A stretch of DNA of 6,491 nt. It comes from a virus (Duplodnaviria; Heunggongvirae; Uroviricota; Caudoviricetes). The number at the start of each line of letters is the position of its first letter. Position 1 is the first letter of the stretch. The notes under the pieces were generated by a model, which made no database searches, had not been told where the DNA came from, and saw only the letters and a list, made by a program, of their open reading frames with translations. Location: the IMG/VR virus record IMGVR_UViG_2671180884_000025; one strand, given 5' to 3'. The position numbers and the translations under genes were made by a program. This document shows positions 105 through 5,947 of the stretch, in pieces.

Positions 105-3100
105 ATGGCGACGTTACGTGAACTGATTATCAAAATTTCGGCAAATTCGCAGTCATTCCAGTCGGAGATCCAGCGGGCTTCCCGCATGGGCAGTGAATAT
201 TACCGGACCCTGCAGAATGGCGGGCGTCAGGCTGCCGCAGTCGCCCGGGAGCAGCGACGCGCCCTGGCTGAGCTGAACAGCCAGTTGACGGAAATCCGCG
301 CTTCAGCTGCCGGAACGGCGGGGGCATTTGCAGGTGCCTTTGCCACCGGACACCTGATTTCTCTGGCCGATGAATGGAGTTCCGTGAATGCCCGACTGAA
401 ACAGGCGTCGCAGTCATCCGATGAATTTTCGTCATCACAGAAAGTGCTGATGGATATCAGCCAGCGGACGGGCACGGCATTTTCAGATAATGCGGCCCTG
501 TTTGCCCGCTCGGCAGCCTCAATGCGTGAATATGGCTACAGTGCTGATGATGTGCTGAAGGTGACGGAGGCCATTTCCACGGGGCTGAAAATCTCCGGTG
601 CCAGTACGGCAGAGGCGGGCTCGGTGATCACCCAGTTCAGCCAGGCGCTGGCACAGGGTGTGTTACGCGGTGAGGAATTTAATTCGGTCAATGAAAGCGG
701 AGACCGGATCGTACGTGCACTGGCTGCGGGTATGGGCGTGGCCCGTAAAGACCTTAAGGCGATGGCGGACGACGGCAAACTGACGGCGGATAAAGTCGTT
801 CCTGCGTTAATCAGCCAGCTGGGGGTATTGCGTGATGAATATGCCGCCATGCCGGAAACGGTCTCTGACGGGATCACAAAGGTGGAAAACGCCTTTATGG
901 CCTGGGTGGGTGGCGCGAATGAGGCCAGTGGGGTGACAAAAACGCTCTCCGGCGTGCTGAACGGTGTTGCCGGTAATATTGATAATGTGGCAACAGCAGC
1001 GGGGGCGCTGGTTGCCGTCGGGGTTGCCCGGTACTTTGGCAATATGGCCTCCGGAGCGGTGTCTGCCACGGCAGGACTTGTGACGGCAGCACGTAATGAA
1101 GTGGCACTGGCGGAAGCACAGCTCAGGGGGACGCAGATTGCCACGGCGCGGGCAAGGGCAGCCGTGTACCGTGCACAGCAGGCTGTGGCGGCAGCCCGCG
1201 GGACGGAGATGCAGATTGCTGCAGAAGCCCGTCTGGCGGCCACACAGGAACGCCTGAACAGAAATATTGCTGCCAGAACCGCAGCCCAGAATGCGCTGAA
1301 CAGTACAACGGCGGTGGGCTCACGTCTGATGACTGGTGCGTTGGGACTGGTTGGTGGCGTACCCGGACTGGTGATGCTGGGGGCAGCAGCATGGTATACG
1401 CTGTACCAGAATCAGGAGCAGGCCAGGGAGTCAGCGCGCCAGTATGCACTGACGATAGATGAAATCGCGCATAAAACGCCGTCAATGTCTTTGCCTGAAG
1501 CCTCAGATAATGAAGGACGAACACGGGCGGCGCTGGCAGAGCAGAACCGGCTGATTGATGAACAGGCCAGCCGGGTGAAATCCCTGCAGGAAAAAATCGC
1601 TGGATATCAGTATGTTCTGGCTAACCCTGGCTGGACAACCGGTGACGGATTCATGATAAACCATCTGACATCGGTGAAGACCGTAACGGAAGGGCTTTCT
1701 CAGGCAACAGAGCAGCTTGCCGTTGAGCAGTCCCGTCTGGCACAGATGCAGGAAAAAGCGCAGTCCATTCAGGATGTGCTTGCCGGGCTGGAAGACCGTC
1801 GTGTGGCGTTAATTCGTCAGCAGGCGGCAGAGCAGAATAAGGTGTACCAGTCCATGCTGGTTATGAACGGTCAGCATACGGAATTCAACCGTCTGCTGGG
1901 GCTGGGGAATGAACTGCTTCAGCAGCGGCAGGGACTGGTGAATGTACCGTTACGGCTGCCGCAGGCCACCCTGGATGATAAACAGCAGAGCGCCCTGACA
2001 AAAACAGAACGTGAGCTGGCCCTGTCCCGACTGAAGGGGGAGGAAAAAGAGCGTGCCCGGCTGGGGTATGCGGCGGATGACCTCGGTTTTGTGGGGGATT
2101 CGTATCAGGAGGCGAGACAGCGTTATATCAGTAATGCTCTGGAAGCCTGGCGTAATAACGAGGCGAACAAACCTAAATCCCGGGGTGGAAAATCAGAGAC
2201 GGAAAAAGCGGAAGACAGTTTTTCCCGGCTACTGAAGCAGCAGAAAGAGCAACTGGCACTGGCGGGTAAGAATACAGAGCTGGCGAAGCTGAAGTACCAG
2301 ACTGCGCAGGGCGAACTGAAAACCCTGACGGAGATGCAGAAGCAGGAACTGCTGCGTAACGCGGCCCTGATTGACCAGCAAAAAATCCGGGAACAGTTGC
2401 GATCCCGGGAAGAGACCCTGAAGAATGATAATGTGGCTGCGCGTGCATCAAATGAAGCCGAACTGCTGGGATACGGGCAGGGAGAACGAGCCAGGGAACG
2501 CATGCGGGAGTTGCAGCAGATCCGCGACAGCTTCCGCCAGAAGGATGCGGACCTTCAGTCTCAGTATCAGACCGGGGATATCAGTGAGGATTTTTACAGA
2601 CAGGCACGGGCACAGAACGCGCAGTATCTGAGCGAACGCCTTAAGGACCAGGCAGCCTTTTATGCCGAATCGGATGCGCAGCGTGCGGACTGGCAGAAAG
2701 GCTTGCAGGAGGGGCTCAGTAACTGGGTGGATAATGCGTCCGATTACGCCTCACAGGCAGCACAGCTTGCGACGGAGGGTATCTCAGGGATGGTGAATAA
2801 CATCACGGAGATGCTGAACGGGAATAAAGTGGAATGGCGCAACTGGGCCTCATCAGTGCTGCAGGAAATATCAAAAGTTCTTATGAATGCCGCGATTGTC
2901 AACGGGATCAAGACGGCGGCAAACAGTATGTCCGGTGCAGGAGGATTTATTGGCAGTATTGGTGACTGGCTGGGCGGTGCGGTGGCCAATGCAAAAGGCG
3001 GCGTGTATACCTCGGCAAACCTGAGTGCGTACAGCAACAGCATTGTGGATACGCCCACGTACTTTGCCTTTGCAAAAGGGGCCGGGCTGATGGGGGAAGC

Positions 3101-3347
3101 CGGACCTGAAGCCATAATGCCCCTGACCCGGGCGGCGGATGGCTCGCTGGGCGTACGTGCCGTGGGCAGGATGAACGGGAGTGCGGGTCTGGTGTATTCC
3201 CCGGTCTACCACATCGCCATTCAGAATGACGGGGCCAACGGTCAGATAGGGCCGGAGGCGGCAGGCAGCCTTGTTCAGTTGATTGACCAGCGGGTGCAGG
3301 CGGTGATGCTGTCCATGCGACGAGACGGAGGAATGCTGAGTGGCTGA
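105..3347 (+). CDS. H: Phage tail tape measure protein (lambda gpH-like C-terminal region), 1080 aa
   Basis: Long ORF with an AAGGTG Shine-Dalgarno 5-6 nt before ATG 105. Gly/Ala-rich hydrophobic segments (e.g. GALVAVGVARYFGNMASGAVSATAGLV, LMTGALGLVGGVPGLVMLGAAAWYTLY), a long Q/E/R/K-rich coiled-coil-like middle, and a C-terminus (…IQNDGANGQIGPEAAG…MRRDGGMLSG) resembling the lambda gpH C-terminus as recalled. Sits immediately upstream of M/L/K. Confidence 0.92.
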   Translation: MATLRELIIKISANSQSFQSEIQRASRMGSEYYRTLQNGGRQAAAVAREQRRALAELNSQLTEIRASAAGTAGAFAGAFATGHLISLADEWSSVNARLKQASQSSDEFSSSQKVLMDISQRTGTAFSDNAALFARSAASMREYGYSADDVLKVTEAISTGLKISGASTAEAGSVITQFSQALAQGVLRGEEFNSVNESGDRIVRALAAGMGVARKDLKAMADDGKLTADKVVPALISQLGVLRDEYAAMPETVSDGITKVENAFMAWVGGANEASGVTKTLSGVLNGVAGNIDNVATAAGALVAVGVARYFGNMASGAVSATAGLVTAARNEVALAEAQLRGTQIATARARAAVYRAQQAVAAARGTEMQIAAEARLAATQERLNRNIAARTAAQNALNSTTAVGSRLMTGALGLVGGVPGLVMLGAAAWYTLYQNQEQARESARQYALTIDEIAHKTPSMSLPEASDNEGRTRAALAEQNRLIDEQASRVKSLQEKIAGYQYVLANPGWTTGDGFMINHLTSVKTVTEGLSQATEQLAVEQSRLAQMQEKAQSIQDVLAGLEDRRVALIRQQAAEQNKVYQSMLVMNGQHTEFNRLLGLGNELLQQRQGLVNVPLRLPQATLDDKQQSALTKTERELALSRLKGEEKERARLGYAADDLGFVGDSYQEARQRYISNALEAWRNNEANKPKSRGGKSETEKAEDSFSRLLKQQKEQLALAGKNTELAKLKYQTAQGELKTLTEMQKQELLRNAALIDQQKIREQLRSREETLKNDNVAARASNEAELLGYGQGERARERMRELQQIRDSFRQKDADLQSQYQTGDISEDFYRQARAQNAQYLSERLKDQAAFYAESDAQRADWQKGLQEGLSNWVDNASDYASQAAQLATEGISGMVNNITEMLNGNKVEWRNWASSVLQEISKVLMNAAIVNGIKTAANSMSGAGGFIGSIGDWLGGAVANAKGGVYTSANLSAYSNSIVDTPTYFAFAKGAGLMGEAGPEAIMPLTRAADGSLGVRAVGRMNGSAGLVYSPVYHIAIQNDGANGQIGPEAAGSLVQLIDQRVQAVMLSMRRDGGMLSG

Positions 3348-3681
3348 GATAAAAACGCTGCATCTGGTCCCGCGTGAAGGGATGCAGGTGAGTGAGAAAC
3401 CGTCGGTGGTGAGGGTCCGGTTTGGTGACGGTTATGAACAGCGCCGACCGACGGGACTGAATGCCCGACTGAAGACATTTCAGGCAGTGTTCCGGGTGAC
3501 GGATGAGGCGACCCGGCGCTGGCTGGATGAATTTTTATCGTGGCATGGTGGTTACCGTGCCTTTTTGTGGCGACCGCCGAAACATAACCGGACGGTCAGG
3601 GTGGTGTGCCGGGAGTGGAGTATTACGGATAACGCCAGGTACAGCGATTTCAGTTGTATGATGGAACAGGTAATAAGATAA
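3340..3681 (+). CDS. M: Minor tail protein M (lambda gpM homolog), 113 aa, GTG start overlapping the end of H
   Basis: Translation MAEIKTLHLVPREGMQVSEKPSVVRVRFGDGYEQRRPTGLNARLKT… aligns by eye with lambda gpM (…SVPSVRKVRFGDGYSQRAPAGLNANLKT…). GGAGG at 3326-3330 precedes the GTG at 3340; the start overlaps the H stop (3345-3347) by 8 nt, suggesting translational coupling. Confidence 0.9.
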   Translation: MAEIKTLHLVPREGMQVSEKPSVVRVRFGDGYEQRRPTGLNARLKTFQAVFRVTDEATRRWLDEFLSWHGGYRAFLWRPPKHNRTVRVVCREWSITDNARYSDFSCMMEQVIR

Positions 3682-3774
3682 GTTTTTGAGAAAAAAACCT
3701 AAAAGCATCGTTTATTAATTTGCTTGCTTGTTATTTTTGTTTTGTCTTGACATAAAGTGCTATCAAAGTTGTTT

Positions 3775-3830
3775 TTTTACATTTTGAAACAAAATAAAAA
3801 TTGAACCCGTAATTTAATTTACAATATTTT
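3775..3830 (+). promoter_or_regulatory. Putative porin promoter region: OmpR-box-like motif TTTACAATTTTGAAACA (3775-3791), candidate -35 TTGAAC (3801-3806), candidate -10 TACAAT (3820-3825)
   Basis: The motif resembles the OmpR-binding C1 site of ompC as recalled from memory (TTTACATTTTGAAACATCTA), with one extra A. TACAAT is a near-consensus -10, but the spacer to TTGAAC is only 13 nt, so the promoter may be activator-dependent with a poor -35. The whole 207-bp M-porin spacer is AT-rich. Confidence 0.4.
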
Positions 3831-3888
3831 GAGTTTTGTTCATGACATCTCTATGCATGAATAGTTCAGTTTAAATAAGGATTAAATC

Positions 3889-3957
3889 ATGAAAAAAATG
3901 ACAGTGGCACTTTCAGCTGTGGCAGCAGCTGTAATTTTTGCAGCGGGGGCGCAGGCT
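3889..3957 (+). other. Sec signal peptide of the porin (23 aa, [23 protein letters not shown], predicted cleavage before AEVY)
   Basis: Positively charged N-terminus (KK), hydrophobic core, A-x-A site immediately before the conserved mature porin N-terminus. Confidence 0.8.
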
Positions 3958-5052
3958 GCAGAAGTATACAATAAAGATGGCAATAAACTTGATGTGTATG
4001 GGCGTGCAACTGCACTCCATTATTTCTCCAGTGATAAGGGGGATGATGGAGATAAGACATACGCACGTCTGGGCTTTAAAGGTGAAACTCAGATTAATGA
4101 CCAGTTGACTGGTTTTGGTCAGTGGGAATATCAGTTCTCTGGTAATAAAGCTGAATCAGAGGGTGCTGCGGGTAATAAAACCCGTCTTGCATTTGCAGGT
4201 CTGAAGTTTGGTGAGTTTGGCACCATTGATTATGGTCGTAACTATGGTATTGCGTACGATGTTGGTTCTTATACTGACGTATTACCAGAGTTTGGCGGTG
4301 ATGGCTGGACCCAGACCGATAACTTCATGACAGCCCGTACTTCCGGGGTATTAACCTATCGTAATACAGATTTCTTTGGGCTTGTCGATGGCCTGAATTT
4401 TGCGGCACAGTACCAGGGTAAAAATGATCGGGGTGATCTCCGGAAAGCTAATGGTGATGGTCACGGTTTCTCAGCCAGTTATGAATATGAAGGTTTTGGT
4501 ATCGTTGCCGCATATATTAATGCGGACCGAACCAATAATCAGGAAAAAGGTCTGAATGGTACTCTGACGATTGAACAAACTGATCCTTTAACCGGTAAAG
4601 TGACTGAAAAGCAGATCGTTGTTGATTCCGGTAGTGTTGCAAAAGGTAAACACGCTGAGATGTGGGGAGTCGGACTAAAATACGATGCTGACAACCTTTA
4701 CCTGGCTACAACATATTCCGAAACTCAGAATCTGACGACCTTTGGTGATAAAGGAGTTGCAGATAAAGCGCAAAACTTTGAAGCGGTACTGCAGTATCAG
4801 TTTGATTTCGGTCTGCGTCCATCTCTGGCATTCCTGCAGTCTCGTGCTCAGGATGTCATTGTAGGTGGTAAAAACTATGGTGACCAGGATTTGGTTAAGT
4901 ATGTTGACGTAGGTGCGAAATATTACTTCAATAAAAATATGTCCACCTATGTTGATTATAAAATCAATCTGGTTGATGAGAATAAGTTTACCAGGGATGC
5001 GGGCATTGCAACGGATGATATCGTTGCTGTTGGTATGACTTATCAGTTCTGA
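3889..5052 (+). CDS. General diffusion porin, OmpC/OmpF/PhoE/NmpC/Lc family (16-strand beta-barrel trimeric porin), 387-aa precursor
   Basis: AAGGA Shine-Dalgarno 7 nt before the ATG. N-terminal signal peptide with AQA cleavage motif, then mature N-terminus [15 protein letters not shown] as in enterobacterial porins. Conserved blocks [24 protein letters not shown], loop-3 [78 protein letters not shown]-terminal …VGMTYQF with terminal Phe, the outer-membrane beta-barrel signature. Confidence 0.95.
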
Positions 5053-5072
5053 TGATTACTGGTAAATAAATA

Positions 5073-5126
5073 CAGGCCATCTGCCCTCACAGATGGCCTG
5101 TATCAGTGGAAGTTATATTTCCACTG
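5073..5126 (+). other. Two tandem stem-loops in the porin 3' UTR, neither followed by a T-tract
   Basis: First: CAGGCCATCTG (5073-5083), loop CCCTCA, CAGATGGCCTG (5090-5100). Second: CAGTGGAA (5104-5111), loop GTTATAT, TTCCACTG (5119-5126). A further palindrome ATCAGCTA-T-TAGCTGAT lies at 5137-5153. Confidence 0.5.
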
Positions 5127-5210
5127 GTCACTGCGATCAGCTATTAGCTGATTTAATTTTCATTTTATTACCTTCATCGTTTTTGATTTTTTAATTGAAC
5201 TATTTTATCA

Positions 5211-5234
5211 GGGGCGCATTGCGCCCCTTTTTTT
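5211..5234 (+). terminator. Rho-independent terminator ending the porin transcription unit
   Basis: Perfect GC-rich stem GGGGCGC (5211-5217), loop ATT, GCGCCCC (5221-5227), followed by 7 T (5228-5234). Ends 14 nt before the L start codon. Confidence 0.85.
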
Positions 5235-5248
5235 ATGGGTGGATGTTT

Positions 5249-5947
5249 ATGCAGGAGATCAACGAAGAAAGCCTGAATGAGTCGGTTAAATCAGAGCAGT
5301 CACCGCGGGTGGTACTCTGGGAAATTGACCTGACGGTGCAGGGTGGTGAGCGGTATTTTTTCTGTAATGAGCTGAATGAAAAAGGGGAGCCGGTCACCTG
5401 GCAGGGGCGGAAGTACCAGGCATACCCGATTGACGGCAGCGGCTTTGAGATGAACGGGAAAGGGAGCAGTGCCCGCCCGTCACTGACGGTGTCGAATCTG
5501 TTCGGGCTGGTTACCGGGATGGCGGAGGATTTGCAGAGCCTGGTGGGGGCCACGGTGGTTCGTCGCCGGGTGTATGCGCGTTTTCTGGATGCGGTGAATT
5601 TTGTGGCAGGCAATCCTGAGGCCGACCCGGAGCAGGAGCTGACGGACCGGTGGGTGGTGGAGCAGATGTCATCGCTGACGGCCATGACGGCCTCGTTTGT
5701 GCTGGCGACACCGACGGAGACGGACGGGGCGCTGTTTCCCGGTCGCATCATGCTGGCGAACACCTGTATGTGGGATTACCGGGGCGATGAATGCGGGTAT
5801 AACGGTCCGGCAGTGGCGGATGAGTTCGACAACCCCACCACGGATATCCGGAAGGACAGATGCAGCAAGTGCATGCGCGGGTGTGAACTGCGCAGGAATG
5901 TCGGCAATTTTGGCGGTTTCCTTTCCATCAATAAACTTTCGCAGTAA
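5249..5947 (+). CDS. L: Minor tail protein L (lambda gpL homolog), 232 aa
   Basis: From ATG 5249 the translation MQEINEESLNESVKSEQSPRVVLWEIDLTVQGGERYFFCNELNEKGEPVTWQGRKYQAYPI…GNFGGFLSINKLSQ closely matches lambda gpL as recalled, including its 232-aa length. The track ORF starts at 5195, but that extension spans the terminator hairpin and has no lambda counterpart, so 5249 is preferred. Confidence 0.93.
   Translation: MQEINEESLNESVKSEQSPRVVLWEIDLTVQGGERYFFCNELNEKGEPVTWQGRKYQAYPIDGSGFEMNGKGSSARPSLTVSNLFGLVTGMAEDLQSLVGATVVRRRVYARFLDAVNFVAGNPEADPEQELTDRWVVEQMSSLTAMTASFVLATPTETDGALFPGRIMLANTCMWDYRGDECGYNGPAVADEFDNPTTDIRKDRCSKCMRGCELRRNVGNFGGFLSINKLSQ

Follow-up and report, generated by a model that had tools for sequence, protein, structure and literature searches.

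An OmpR-type site upstream of a prophage-borne porin gene of the NmpC/Lc/OmpD lineage

IpeX, the RNA derived from the 3'UTR of the prophage porin genes nmpC and lc, inhibits the synthesis of OmpC and OmpF. Host OmpR control of a prophage porin that carries an IpeX-type 3'UTR has precedents in nmpC and lc, and the concept is not new. IpeX originates from the porin transcript itself, and its regulation is said not to depend solely on sequence complementarity (PMC12197685). The nmpC gene is activated by CRP and repressed by OmpR, IHF and MprA (PMC11677980; PMC5438342). Its mRNA was 2.4-fold higher in an ompR knockout, and an OmpR ChIP-exo peak, P4, was placed at 576106-576166 in old K-12 coordinates (PMC5438342 supplements). 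We converted these coordinates with an offset of ~777 bp, calibrated on the ompF peak. The centre of P4 then falls at about position 3914 of our locus L089, inside the nmpC box CTTACATCTTGAAATA (3916-3901) and ~5 bp from its centre. This box overlaps the nmpC -35 hexamer TTGAAA, which fits repression. The nmpC promoter reads TTGAAA-18-GAATAT-7-G, and a start at a G has been reported from 5'-RACE (PMC11677980). The promoter of Salmonella ompD has the arrangement TTGAAC-18-TAAAAA-6-G, in which the G lies 69 nt before the ATG, and the 69-nt ompD leader is tightly structured (PMC3333887).

The DNA analysed here, referred to as the window, is a stretch of 6,491 nucleotides from within a lambdoid prophage tail module. 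Its open reading frames comprise a tape-measure gene (105-3347), a gpM-like gene (3340-3681, with the stop at 3681), a porin gene and, from an ATG at 5249, gpL, with a gpK-like gene next in order. The window is 100% identical to a prophage in E. coli 2012EL-2448 (NZ_CP027586), whose genes are annotated successively as tape measure, tail protein, 'porin OmpC' and minor tail protein L. The tail genes have a GC content of ~60%, compared with 24% for the 207-nt intergenic region and ~44-45% for the porin gene, and a terminator scan found a strong intrinsic terminator 3' of the porin gene (5211-5234). Given this position between M and L, the GC drop and the terminator, the porin unit on the + strand (3682-5248), made up of a predicted promoter, the porin gene, a structured 3'UTR and the terminator, is a classical moron. 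The same three features bear out the original prediction that the gene is a prophage-borne porin.

The porin gene (3889-5052, + strand) encodes 387 amino acids of the OmpC/OmpD/NmpC family and passes the NCBIfam subfamily model NF007841 'porin OmpC' with 496.7 bits against a cutoff of 484. Its nearest relatives, at ~64-68% amino acid identity, are chromosomal porins of the OmpD type from Citrobacter, Enterobacter and Salmonella together with phage porins of the Lc/NmpC type, the latter at ~68%. This moron porin belongs to the NmpC/Lc/OmpD lineage. By blastn, the intergenic region 3682-3888 was found in 93 of 5426 complete E. coli genomes (~2%), always on the chromosome and at identities from 100% down to ~72%. 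Further lineages of the cassette were obtained from IMG/VR, and in every diverged prophage examined it occupied the same position between M and L. Many of the listed carrier strains bear STEC-type names.

In the intergenic region, the original prediction had pointed out a motif resembling the C1 site of ompC, which we take to be the high-affinity ompC site. The resemblance proved stronger than claimed, as positions 3776-3791 (TTTACATTTTGAAACA) match the C1 box of K-12 MG1655 (aTTTACATTTTGAAACAtcta) at 16 of 16 bases. The letters quoted for 3775-3791 (TTTACAATTTTGAAACA) were one base off and do not occur in the window; the true letters are TTTTACATTTTGAAACA. The sequence of the C1 oligonucleotide was confirmed in PMC2586830. 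Allowing up to three mismatches, 0.07 chance matches to the motif are expected in the window. The complete site extends over 3776-3795 on the + strand and has the tandem structure expected for OmpR, with two head-to-tail 10-bp half-sites, TTTACATTTT and GAAACAAAAT (consensus GTTACAnnnn / KWWGTTACAT). It also matches the OmpR ChIP-exo repeat GTTACATTTTGTTACAT (PMC5438342) at 13 of 17 positions. The window holds this single site and not the array of three sites seen at ompC and ompF.

To score the site, we derived four OmpR matrices from F1-F3 and C1-C3, leaving C1 out of two of them. The six sequences are those we take to be the established ones, and each was located in K-12 with the spacing to ompF or ompC that was expected. 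OmpR sites are degenerate and the matrices rest on just five or six of them. Under all four matrices, 3776-3795 was the best 20-mer on either strand of the window. The two matrices without C1 gave it 15.5 and 16.2 bits, within the range of 7.5-20 bits obtained for real footprinted sites. Among 5000 dinucleotide shuffles of the 207-nt region, 2.7% and 1.7% attained these scores. With a GC content of 24%, T-rich motifs are not rare in this region, and the shuffle p value is ~0.02 and not 1e-4. We also scanned 734 kb of other enterobacterial DNA (1.47 million positions). With one matrix, 18 matches scored at least as high, all of them ompF F-sites, K-12 C3 or, in other species, sites that lie where C3 does ahead of ompC-type genes. 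With the other matrix there were four, two of which were ompF sites. Across the background matches, one other locus was the sole exception to ompF/ompC sites or their orthologues. The original prediction was to be abandoned if an OmpR matrix scan gave no significant match; such a match was obtained.

Comparison of prophage copies points in the same direction. In alignments of seven diverged lineages, TTTACAT in the first half-site was invariant and the T, G, C and A of the second were conserved. The distance from the site to the ATG remained constant at 93-94 nt, though the intergenic regions are only ~70-80% identical. Several copies read TTTACATTTTGTTACAT, which equals the ChIP-exo repeat at 16 of 17 positions and contains the Salmonella ChIP-seq motif TGTWACAW (PMC3586657). 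The most divergent copy, L119, carries a different yet equally good tandem in the same place (TTTACATTCT followed by CTTACATTTT). Scored with C1-free matrices, the box reached 13.4-17.5 bits in most prophage copies, and the best upstream scores were 12-13 bits for ompD-type genes and ~11 bits for nmpC and lc. Taken together, the reading of 3776-3795 as an OmpR-type site is well supported at the level of sequence and comparison.

These comparisons also bear on the possibility that the box has no function, being inherited porin-promoter sequence or an AT-rich UP-like element that equals C1 by chance. The moron promoter would then be constitutive or silenced by H-NS. The low GC content and the ~2% of shuffles that reach the score would be compatible with such an origin, and the adjoining stretch 3792-3800 (AAATAAAAA) resembles a proximal UP subsite. 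Furthermore, the specificity of OmpR is low, and ChIP studies disagree on its motif (PMC3945435; PMC3586657). However, TTTACAT and the G..ACA of the second half-site are invariant while the A-tract varies, which disfavours an UP-like or non-functional element. The variants drift towards the OmpR consensus and not away from it, and the site scores above its counterparts in the ompD, nmpC and lc promoters. We therefore regard a non-functional box as unlikely.

Downstream of the OmpR-type site, the conserved elements outline a probable promoter. TTGAAC (3801-3806, + strand), the probable -35 element, begins 5 nt past the site and has counterparts in ompD and nmpC. It is followed after 18 nt by TATTTT (3825-3830, + strand), our preferred -10 element. 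TTGAA and AATATTTT are invariant across the lineages, and TATTTT is kept in every copy. The order of site, 5 nt, TTGAAY, 16-18 nt and TATTTT is maintained, with the 16-nt spacer occurring in L119. A consensus promoter scan called no + strand promoter in 3682-3888, and the promoter call rests on conservation and homology: TTGAAC/TATTTT agrees with the consensus at 8 of 12 positions (four of six in each hexamer), below the 9/12 threshold of the scan. By analogy with the design TTGAAN-18-hexamer-6/7-G of ompD and nmpC, transcription would start near G3838. Together, this suggests that the porin is probably transcribed from TTGAAC(3801)-18-TATTTT(3825).

The -10 element originally put forward, TACAAT, is indeed present at 3820-3825 (+ strand), 28 nt past the motif. 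As had been stated, it has no well-spaced -35 element, the hexamer 17 nt upstream being AAAATT. Its use is nevertheless improbable. It lies 13 nt from the invariant TTGAAC and is lost in L119, whereas the overlapping TATTTT is kept everywhere; its counterpart reads TAAAAT in most variants and TAAATA in L119. The choice of the promoter matters for the interpretation of the site. With a start at G3838, the OmpR-type site would occupy positions -62 to -43. With TACAAT as the -10 element it would lie at -56 to -37, and if the TTGAAA within the box served as the -35 element, the site would overlap that hexamer; in either case the predicted effect of OmpR would be changed or reversed.

The predicted start G3838 is also the first base of a conserved stem-loop in the leader (GTTCATG...CATGAAT, 3838-3862, + strand). 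According to RNAalifold, its 7-bp stem is kept in six of six sequences, with one-sided (wobble) changes only. The leader as a whole is very highly conserved, and the Shine-Dalgarno sequence AAGGA (3877-3881, + strand) ahead of the start codon ATG (3889-3891) is invariant in the alignments.

Among the described promoters, that of nmpC and lc is related to the one analysed here. In K-12 nmpC, the box CTTACATCTTGAAATA is followed by an AATATTT block and then by the leader sequences GTGACATC and AATAGTTCA. The window shares the homologous box, the AATATTT block and the leader blocks GACATC and AATAGTTCA. Judged by these shared blocks, the promoters of the phage porin gene and of nmpC/lc are distant homologues. 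Both systems also have a prophage-borne porin of the same lineage in common, and the window has a candidate ipeX-type 3'UTR. They differ in several respects. The nmpC gene and the lc gene of PA-2 adjoin lysis genes (in the K-12 prophage DLP12, between the Q homologue quuD and the lysis genes), whereas the porin gene of the window lies in the tail module. CRP sites are annotated for nmpC and lc, two of them for lc; upstream of the porin gene in the window no CRP-like site was found within two mismatches, the best candidate having three, and the whole window contains fewer matches than shuffled sequences. The nmpC/lc box overlaps the -35 element and scores ~11 bits, whereas the box of the window, with 15.5 bits, lies upstream of a separate, probable -35 element. 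The distance from the box to the AATATTT block is ~17 bp longer than in nmpC, and a second TTGAA would take the role of the -35 element. What is new relative to nmpC and lc is a stronger OmpR-type site, the absence of CRP sites, another predicted promoter geometry and another insertion point. Both the location next to lysis genes and the CRP-dependent promoter that characterise the nmpC/lc cassette are missing from the window.

The promoters of ompD in Salmonella, Citrobacter and Enterobacter, which belong to the closest chromosomal porins (~64-68% amino acid identity), resemble the window in the arrangement of TTGAAC, 18 nt, the -10 element and G, in a GAAAC half-site just before the -35 element and in a leader that opens with a stem-loop. 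They differ from it by a single recognisable half-site (12-13 bits), an upstream CRP-like TCACA element and the 69-nt leader. In a MAFFT alignment of these distant promoters, which is unreliable, the box may align with the TCACA half of the CRP-like site of ompD and L123.

With ompC, the likeness lies in the box, if one micF-proximal patch (3739-3767) is set aside. It covers all 16 bases of C1, the 20-bp tandem of two 10-bp half-sites and a score within the footprinted range. C1 itself is located at -100 to -81 in a three-site array, whereas the site in the window is single and abuts the probable -35 element in the manner of C3 and F3. The spacing agrees, with 4-5 nt between C3 and the -35 element TTGGAT of ompC and 5 nt between the site and the -35 element in the window. 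The flanks are not homologous at the blastn level, and there is no divergent micF gene. The alignment with the ompC promoter suggested along with the original prediction was upheld for the box, which anchors in MAFFT; nothing else in the K-12 ompC-micF region does. We also considered whether the region had been copied recently from the ompC promoter of E. coli and rejected this, as blastn of 3682-3888 against the 5426 genomes finds prophage copies only.

We consider it somewhat better than an even chance that 3745-3888 comprises the porin promoter and leader and that phosphorylated host OmpR, bound at 3776-3795, activates a weak promoter. As proposed, a head-to-tail dimer of OmpR-P would occupy the site at about -62 to -43, which corresponds to the promoter-proximal sites F3 and C3, and would recruit RNA polymerase to the poor sigma-70 promoter. 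The transcript would begin at the foot of the 5' stem-loop with a leader of ~51 nt, and in the lysogen EnvZ/OmpR would govern porin expression without recourse to late transcription of the phage. In this scheme, the start site, the occupancy by OmpR and the sign of regulation are what we infer. A promoter this weak would need another activator, since the CRP site of lc and nmpC is absent. Activation is favoured by the work of Maeda and Mizuno (1990), who reportedly found that a single OmpR site beside the -35 element can activate the ompC promoter.

A promoter repressed by OmpR, as at nmpC, is an alternative that we judge improbable, on a par with a box that has no function. OmpR would bind the same site, but the TTGAAA within the box (3784-3789) would be the -35 element of a promoter with its -10 near 3808-3813, or polymerase would be hindered. 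The porin would then be shut down at high OmpR-P, opposite to OmpC. The precedent of nmpC, whose homologous box overlaps its own -35 TTGAAA, speaks for such an arrangement, as does CGTAAT, a 4/6 match to the -10 consensus that follows the box TTGAAA of the window after 18 nt. Yet position 2 of CGTAAT is not the A that is crucial in a -10 element, L119 does not keep this region (GGGCAGCT), and in the box of most variants TTGTTA takes the place of TTGAAA. In addition, the separate downstream TTGAAY and TATTTT are invariant, and the ~17 extra bp between the box and the AATATTT block set the window apart from nmpC. Under the activation model, the same inherited box would thus sit in an activating position here.

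Least probable among the alternatives, by a small step, is that another regulator of the OmpR/PhoB family is the main user of the site, most plausibly RstA (PhoQP-RstBA; low Mg2+, acid), so that the porin would respond to pH or Mg2+ and not to osmolarity. Expression of nmpC is reportedly modulated by pH (Coll et al. 1994), which would suit RstA. The RstA box TACATNTNGTTACA (PMC4117788) is matched at 12 of 12 specified positions in the copies L004 and L005 and at 10 of 12 in the window, and the motifs of OmpR and RstA are alike and have targets in common (PMC7315122); however, GAAACA in the window deviates from the RstA box at just those positions that agree with ompC C1, an OmpR ChIP-exo peak covers the homologous nmpC box, and the two regulators are not mutually exclusive.

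Returning to activation by OmpR, a single site identical to C1 leads us to expect dependence on OmpR at low OmpR-P and not a steep osmotic switch. The original prediction had the porin co-regulated with the host porins by osmolarity. On our reading of the site, an osmotic response of the phage porin is predicted with less confidence than dependence on OmpR, and the sign of any co-regulation is uncertain, the sole experimental precedent, nmpC, being one of repression by OmpR. If OmpR drives the promoter, a phage porin would be under the control of the host regulator of envelope stress and osmolarity in ~2% of complete E. coli genomes, and lysogens might be affected in outer-membrane permeability, antibiotic uptake, availability of phage receptors and surface antigenicity. 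It would also mean that the same inherited box represses when it lies over the -35 element, as in nmpC, or activates when it lies one site-length upstream, as here, after a small rearrangement.

The porin transcript further includes a 3'UTR of 182 nt (5053-5234, + strand) that conservation, a consensus fold, the terminator scan and an alignment of its 3' part mark as a probable IpeX-like structured RNA. It is conserved across the variants, with a consensus fold of 41 pairs, seven of which show compensatory double changes. The fold consists of hairpins at 5070-5103, 5104-5126 and 5135-5153, an unpaired AU-rich stretch of ~57 nt and the terminator stem (5211-5227) followed by U7 (5228-5234), all on the + strand. 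As in IpeX, the RNA lies between the porin stop codon and an intrinsic terminator, and its 3' part shares AACCTTCTGTTAT...TTACC...TTTAT and the GGGGCG terminator. The last ~70 nt align with the K-12 nmpC 3'UTR (ipeX) and the remainder is not alignable. Unlike in IpeX, the hairpins are different and there is a long, explicit complementarity of 14 bp to the ompF RBS.

This candidate seed, TTTATTACCTTCAT (5164-5177, + strand), is complementary to ATGAGGGTAATAAA in the ompF RBS region (-16 to -3). We evaluated contiguous helices in place of RNAduplex, whose long-window duplexes were unrealistic and loop-rich. A contiguous helix of 14 bp was reached in 0.4% of dinucleotide shuffles, and the best contiguous helix of MicF itself with ompF has 12 bp. 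Sister copies keep 13 bp of the ompF helix, a C-to-U change giving a G-U pair. They add a 15-bp helix between TTAACTTTCTGTTAT and the ompC region ATAACAGAGGGTTAA at -19 to -5. Of the 5426 E. coli genomes, 5416 carry the ompF target region at an identity of at least 95%. The Rfam MicF model (RF00033) matches 5146-5236 over its full length but weakly, with 28.3 bits against a gathering threshold of 79 (E = 0.57). We therefore rejected the 3'UTR as MicF, of which only the seed and the terminator have a resemblance.

The ompC-micF locus, where OmpR activates both a porin and an RNA against ompF, nevertheless offers a parallel, in that the window likewise combines an OmpR-type site, an OmpC-family porin and an RNA whose candidate seed, UUUAUUACC.UCAU, would be directed at the ompF site of MicF. 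In the window, the RNA sits within the 3'UTR of the porin gene and shares its strand, whereas micF is a divergent gene. We tentatively suggest, as a possibility that we consider rather less probable than activation by OmpR itself, that the cassette is a porin-swap module on one transcript, in which a phage porin driven by OmpR or RstA is joined to an IpeX-related sRNA from the 3'UTR whose unpaired seed would pair with the RBS of ompF (14 bp) and, in sister copies, of ompC (15 bp). If so, the logic of ompC-micF would be contained in one mRNA, and the phage porin would replace the major porins of the host. This could, for example, exclude phages that depend on OmpC or OmpF, or alter permeability or antigenicity in Shiga-toxin-producing strains, and it would supply a base-pairing mechanism that was unsettled for IpeX. 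The ompC-micF logic in one transcript presupposes an OmpR-driven promoter and is a lead, not a result. Unless the pairing model for the 3'UTR holds, the advance over nmpC and lc is incremental.

Upstream of the OmpR-type site, the lineages share a further conserved block at 3745-3763 on the minus strand, which reads GTCTTGACATAAAGTGCTA on the + strand and has the invariant columns TCTT..A.AAAGTG. As a marbox, it matches the pattern with two mismatches; 1.5 such matches are expected by chance, and this assignment was rejected as not significant. A micF gene or remnant on the minus strand was likewise rejected, since the likeness comes down to one 29-nt patch and there is no Rfam match there. 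This patch (3739-3767) is 86% identical to positions 1558-1530 of the K-12 locus L001, with E = 0.005 in a small database. The block at 3745-3763 resembles a marbox and the micF-proximal, marbox-containing part of the K-12 ompC-micF intergenic region.

Upstream of the OmpR-type site (the 20-bp tandem at 3776-3795 that precedes the porin gene), the copies share a further conserved block (3745-3763, -), in which TCTT..A.AAAGTG is invariant. Over 29 nt, the segment of the window that spans this block (3739-3767) shares 86% identity with the micF-proximal, marbox-containing part of the region between ompC and micF in K-12. When a marbox match was tested within the block 3745-3763, it was not significant.

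The cassette copy that diverges most from the others lies at 2342-2503 of IMG/VR UViG_2711768044_000001. It carries the box (TTTACATTCT and CTTACATTTT in tandem), followed after 5 nt by TTGAAT and, after a further 16 nt, by TATTTT, and the leader is lengthened by 6-7 nt. TAnAAT is absent from this copy at the position where the original prediction had placed the -10 element (TACAAT, 3820-3825, in the window).

A possible origin of the OmpR-type site emerged from a MAFFT alignment (A6) of L034, the nmpC-type copy L123, and the upstream regions of the variants. In this alignment, GATCTTGATCACAC, a CRP-like half-site of ompD and of L123, was placed against GATCTTGTATTTACAT of the tail-module copies. 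This pairing is a hint that the OmpR-type site could derive from a converted CRP site, with MAFFT alignment of such distant promoters being unreliable.

Downstream of the porin gene, the 3'UTR (5053-5234, +) forms a conserved structured RNA, in which hairpins bearing compensatory changes are accompanied by an AU-rich unpaired segment and a terminator with a U7 tract. It is distantly homologous to ipeX, the 3'UTR RNA of nmpC. Its seed (5164-5177, +) is predicted to pair with the ompF ribosome-binding site in a helix of 14 bp (p = 0.004, shuffle test); a 15-bp helix is also predicted between the ompC ribosome-binding site and the sister copies L003, L004, L005, and L008. The Rfam model of MicF, the host small RNA against ompF, gave a weak full-length match at 5146-5236 (+; E = 0.57), and family membership was rejected because the score of 28.3 bits fell below the gathering score of 79. 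This segment resembles MicF only in its terminator and in the seed directed against ompF, UUUAUUACC.UCAU.

Porin length ranges from 364 to 387 amino acids across the sister copies L003-L008, and the porin of the window carries a long insert of 31 residues, which together suggest that a surface loop has diversified. In L007 (NZ_CP116169.1), the cassette persists in a decayed prophage whose tape-measure and L genes are reduced to fragments, and IS66-family and other transposase genes flank the cassette. Both the porin gene and the box ahead of it remain intact, a pattern consistent with selection acting on the moron itself.

The cassette occurs at two places in strain 2012EL-2448 (NZ_CP027586.1), and an identical porin is found on three viral contigs (L096, L100, L101) of the single IMG genome 643348545, implying that a strain can harbor multiple related prophages, each with the cassette.

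Finally, a terminator-like hairpin (aaccgc-tgag-gcggttttttt; 19-86, +) separates the tail assembly genes from the tape-measure gene. It coincides with a sub-threshold Rfam match to isrK (27.1 bits versus a gathering score of 50, E = 0.008), and its position within the tail operon is odd for a terminator.
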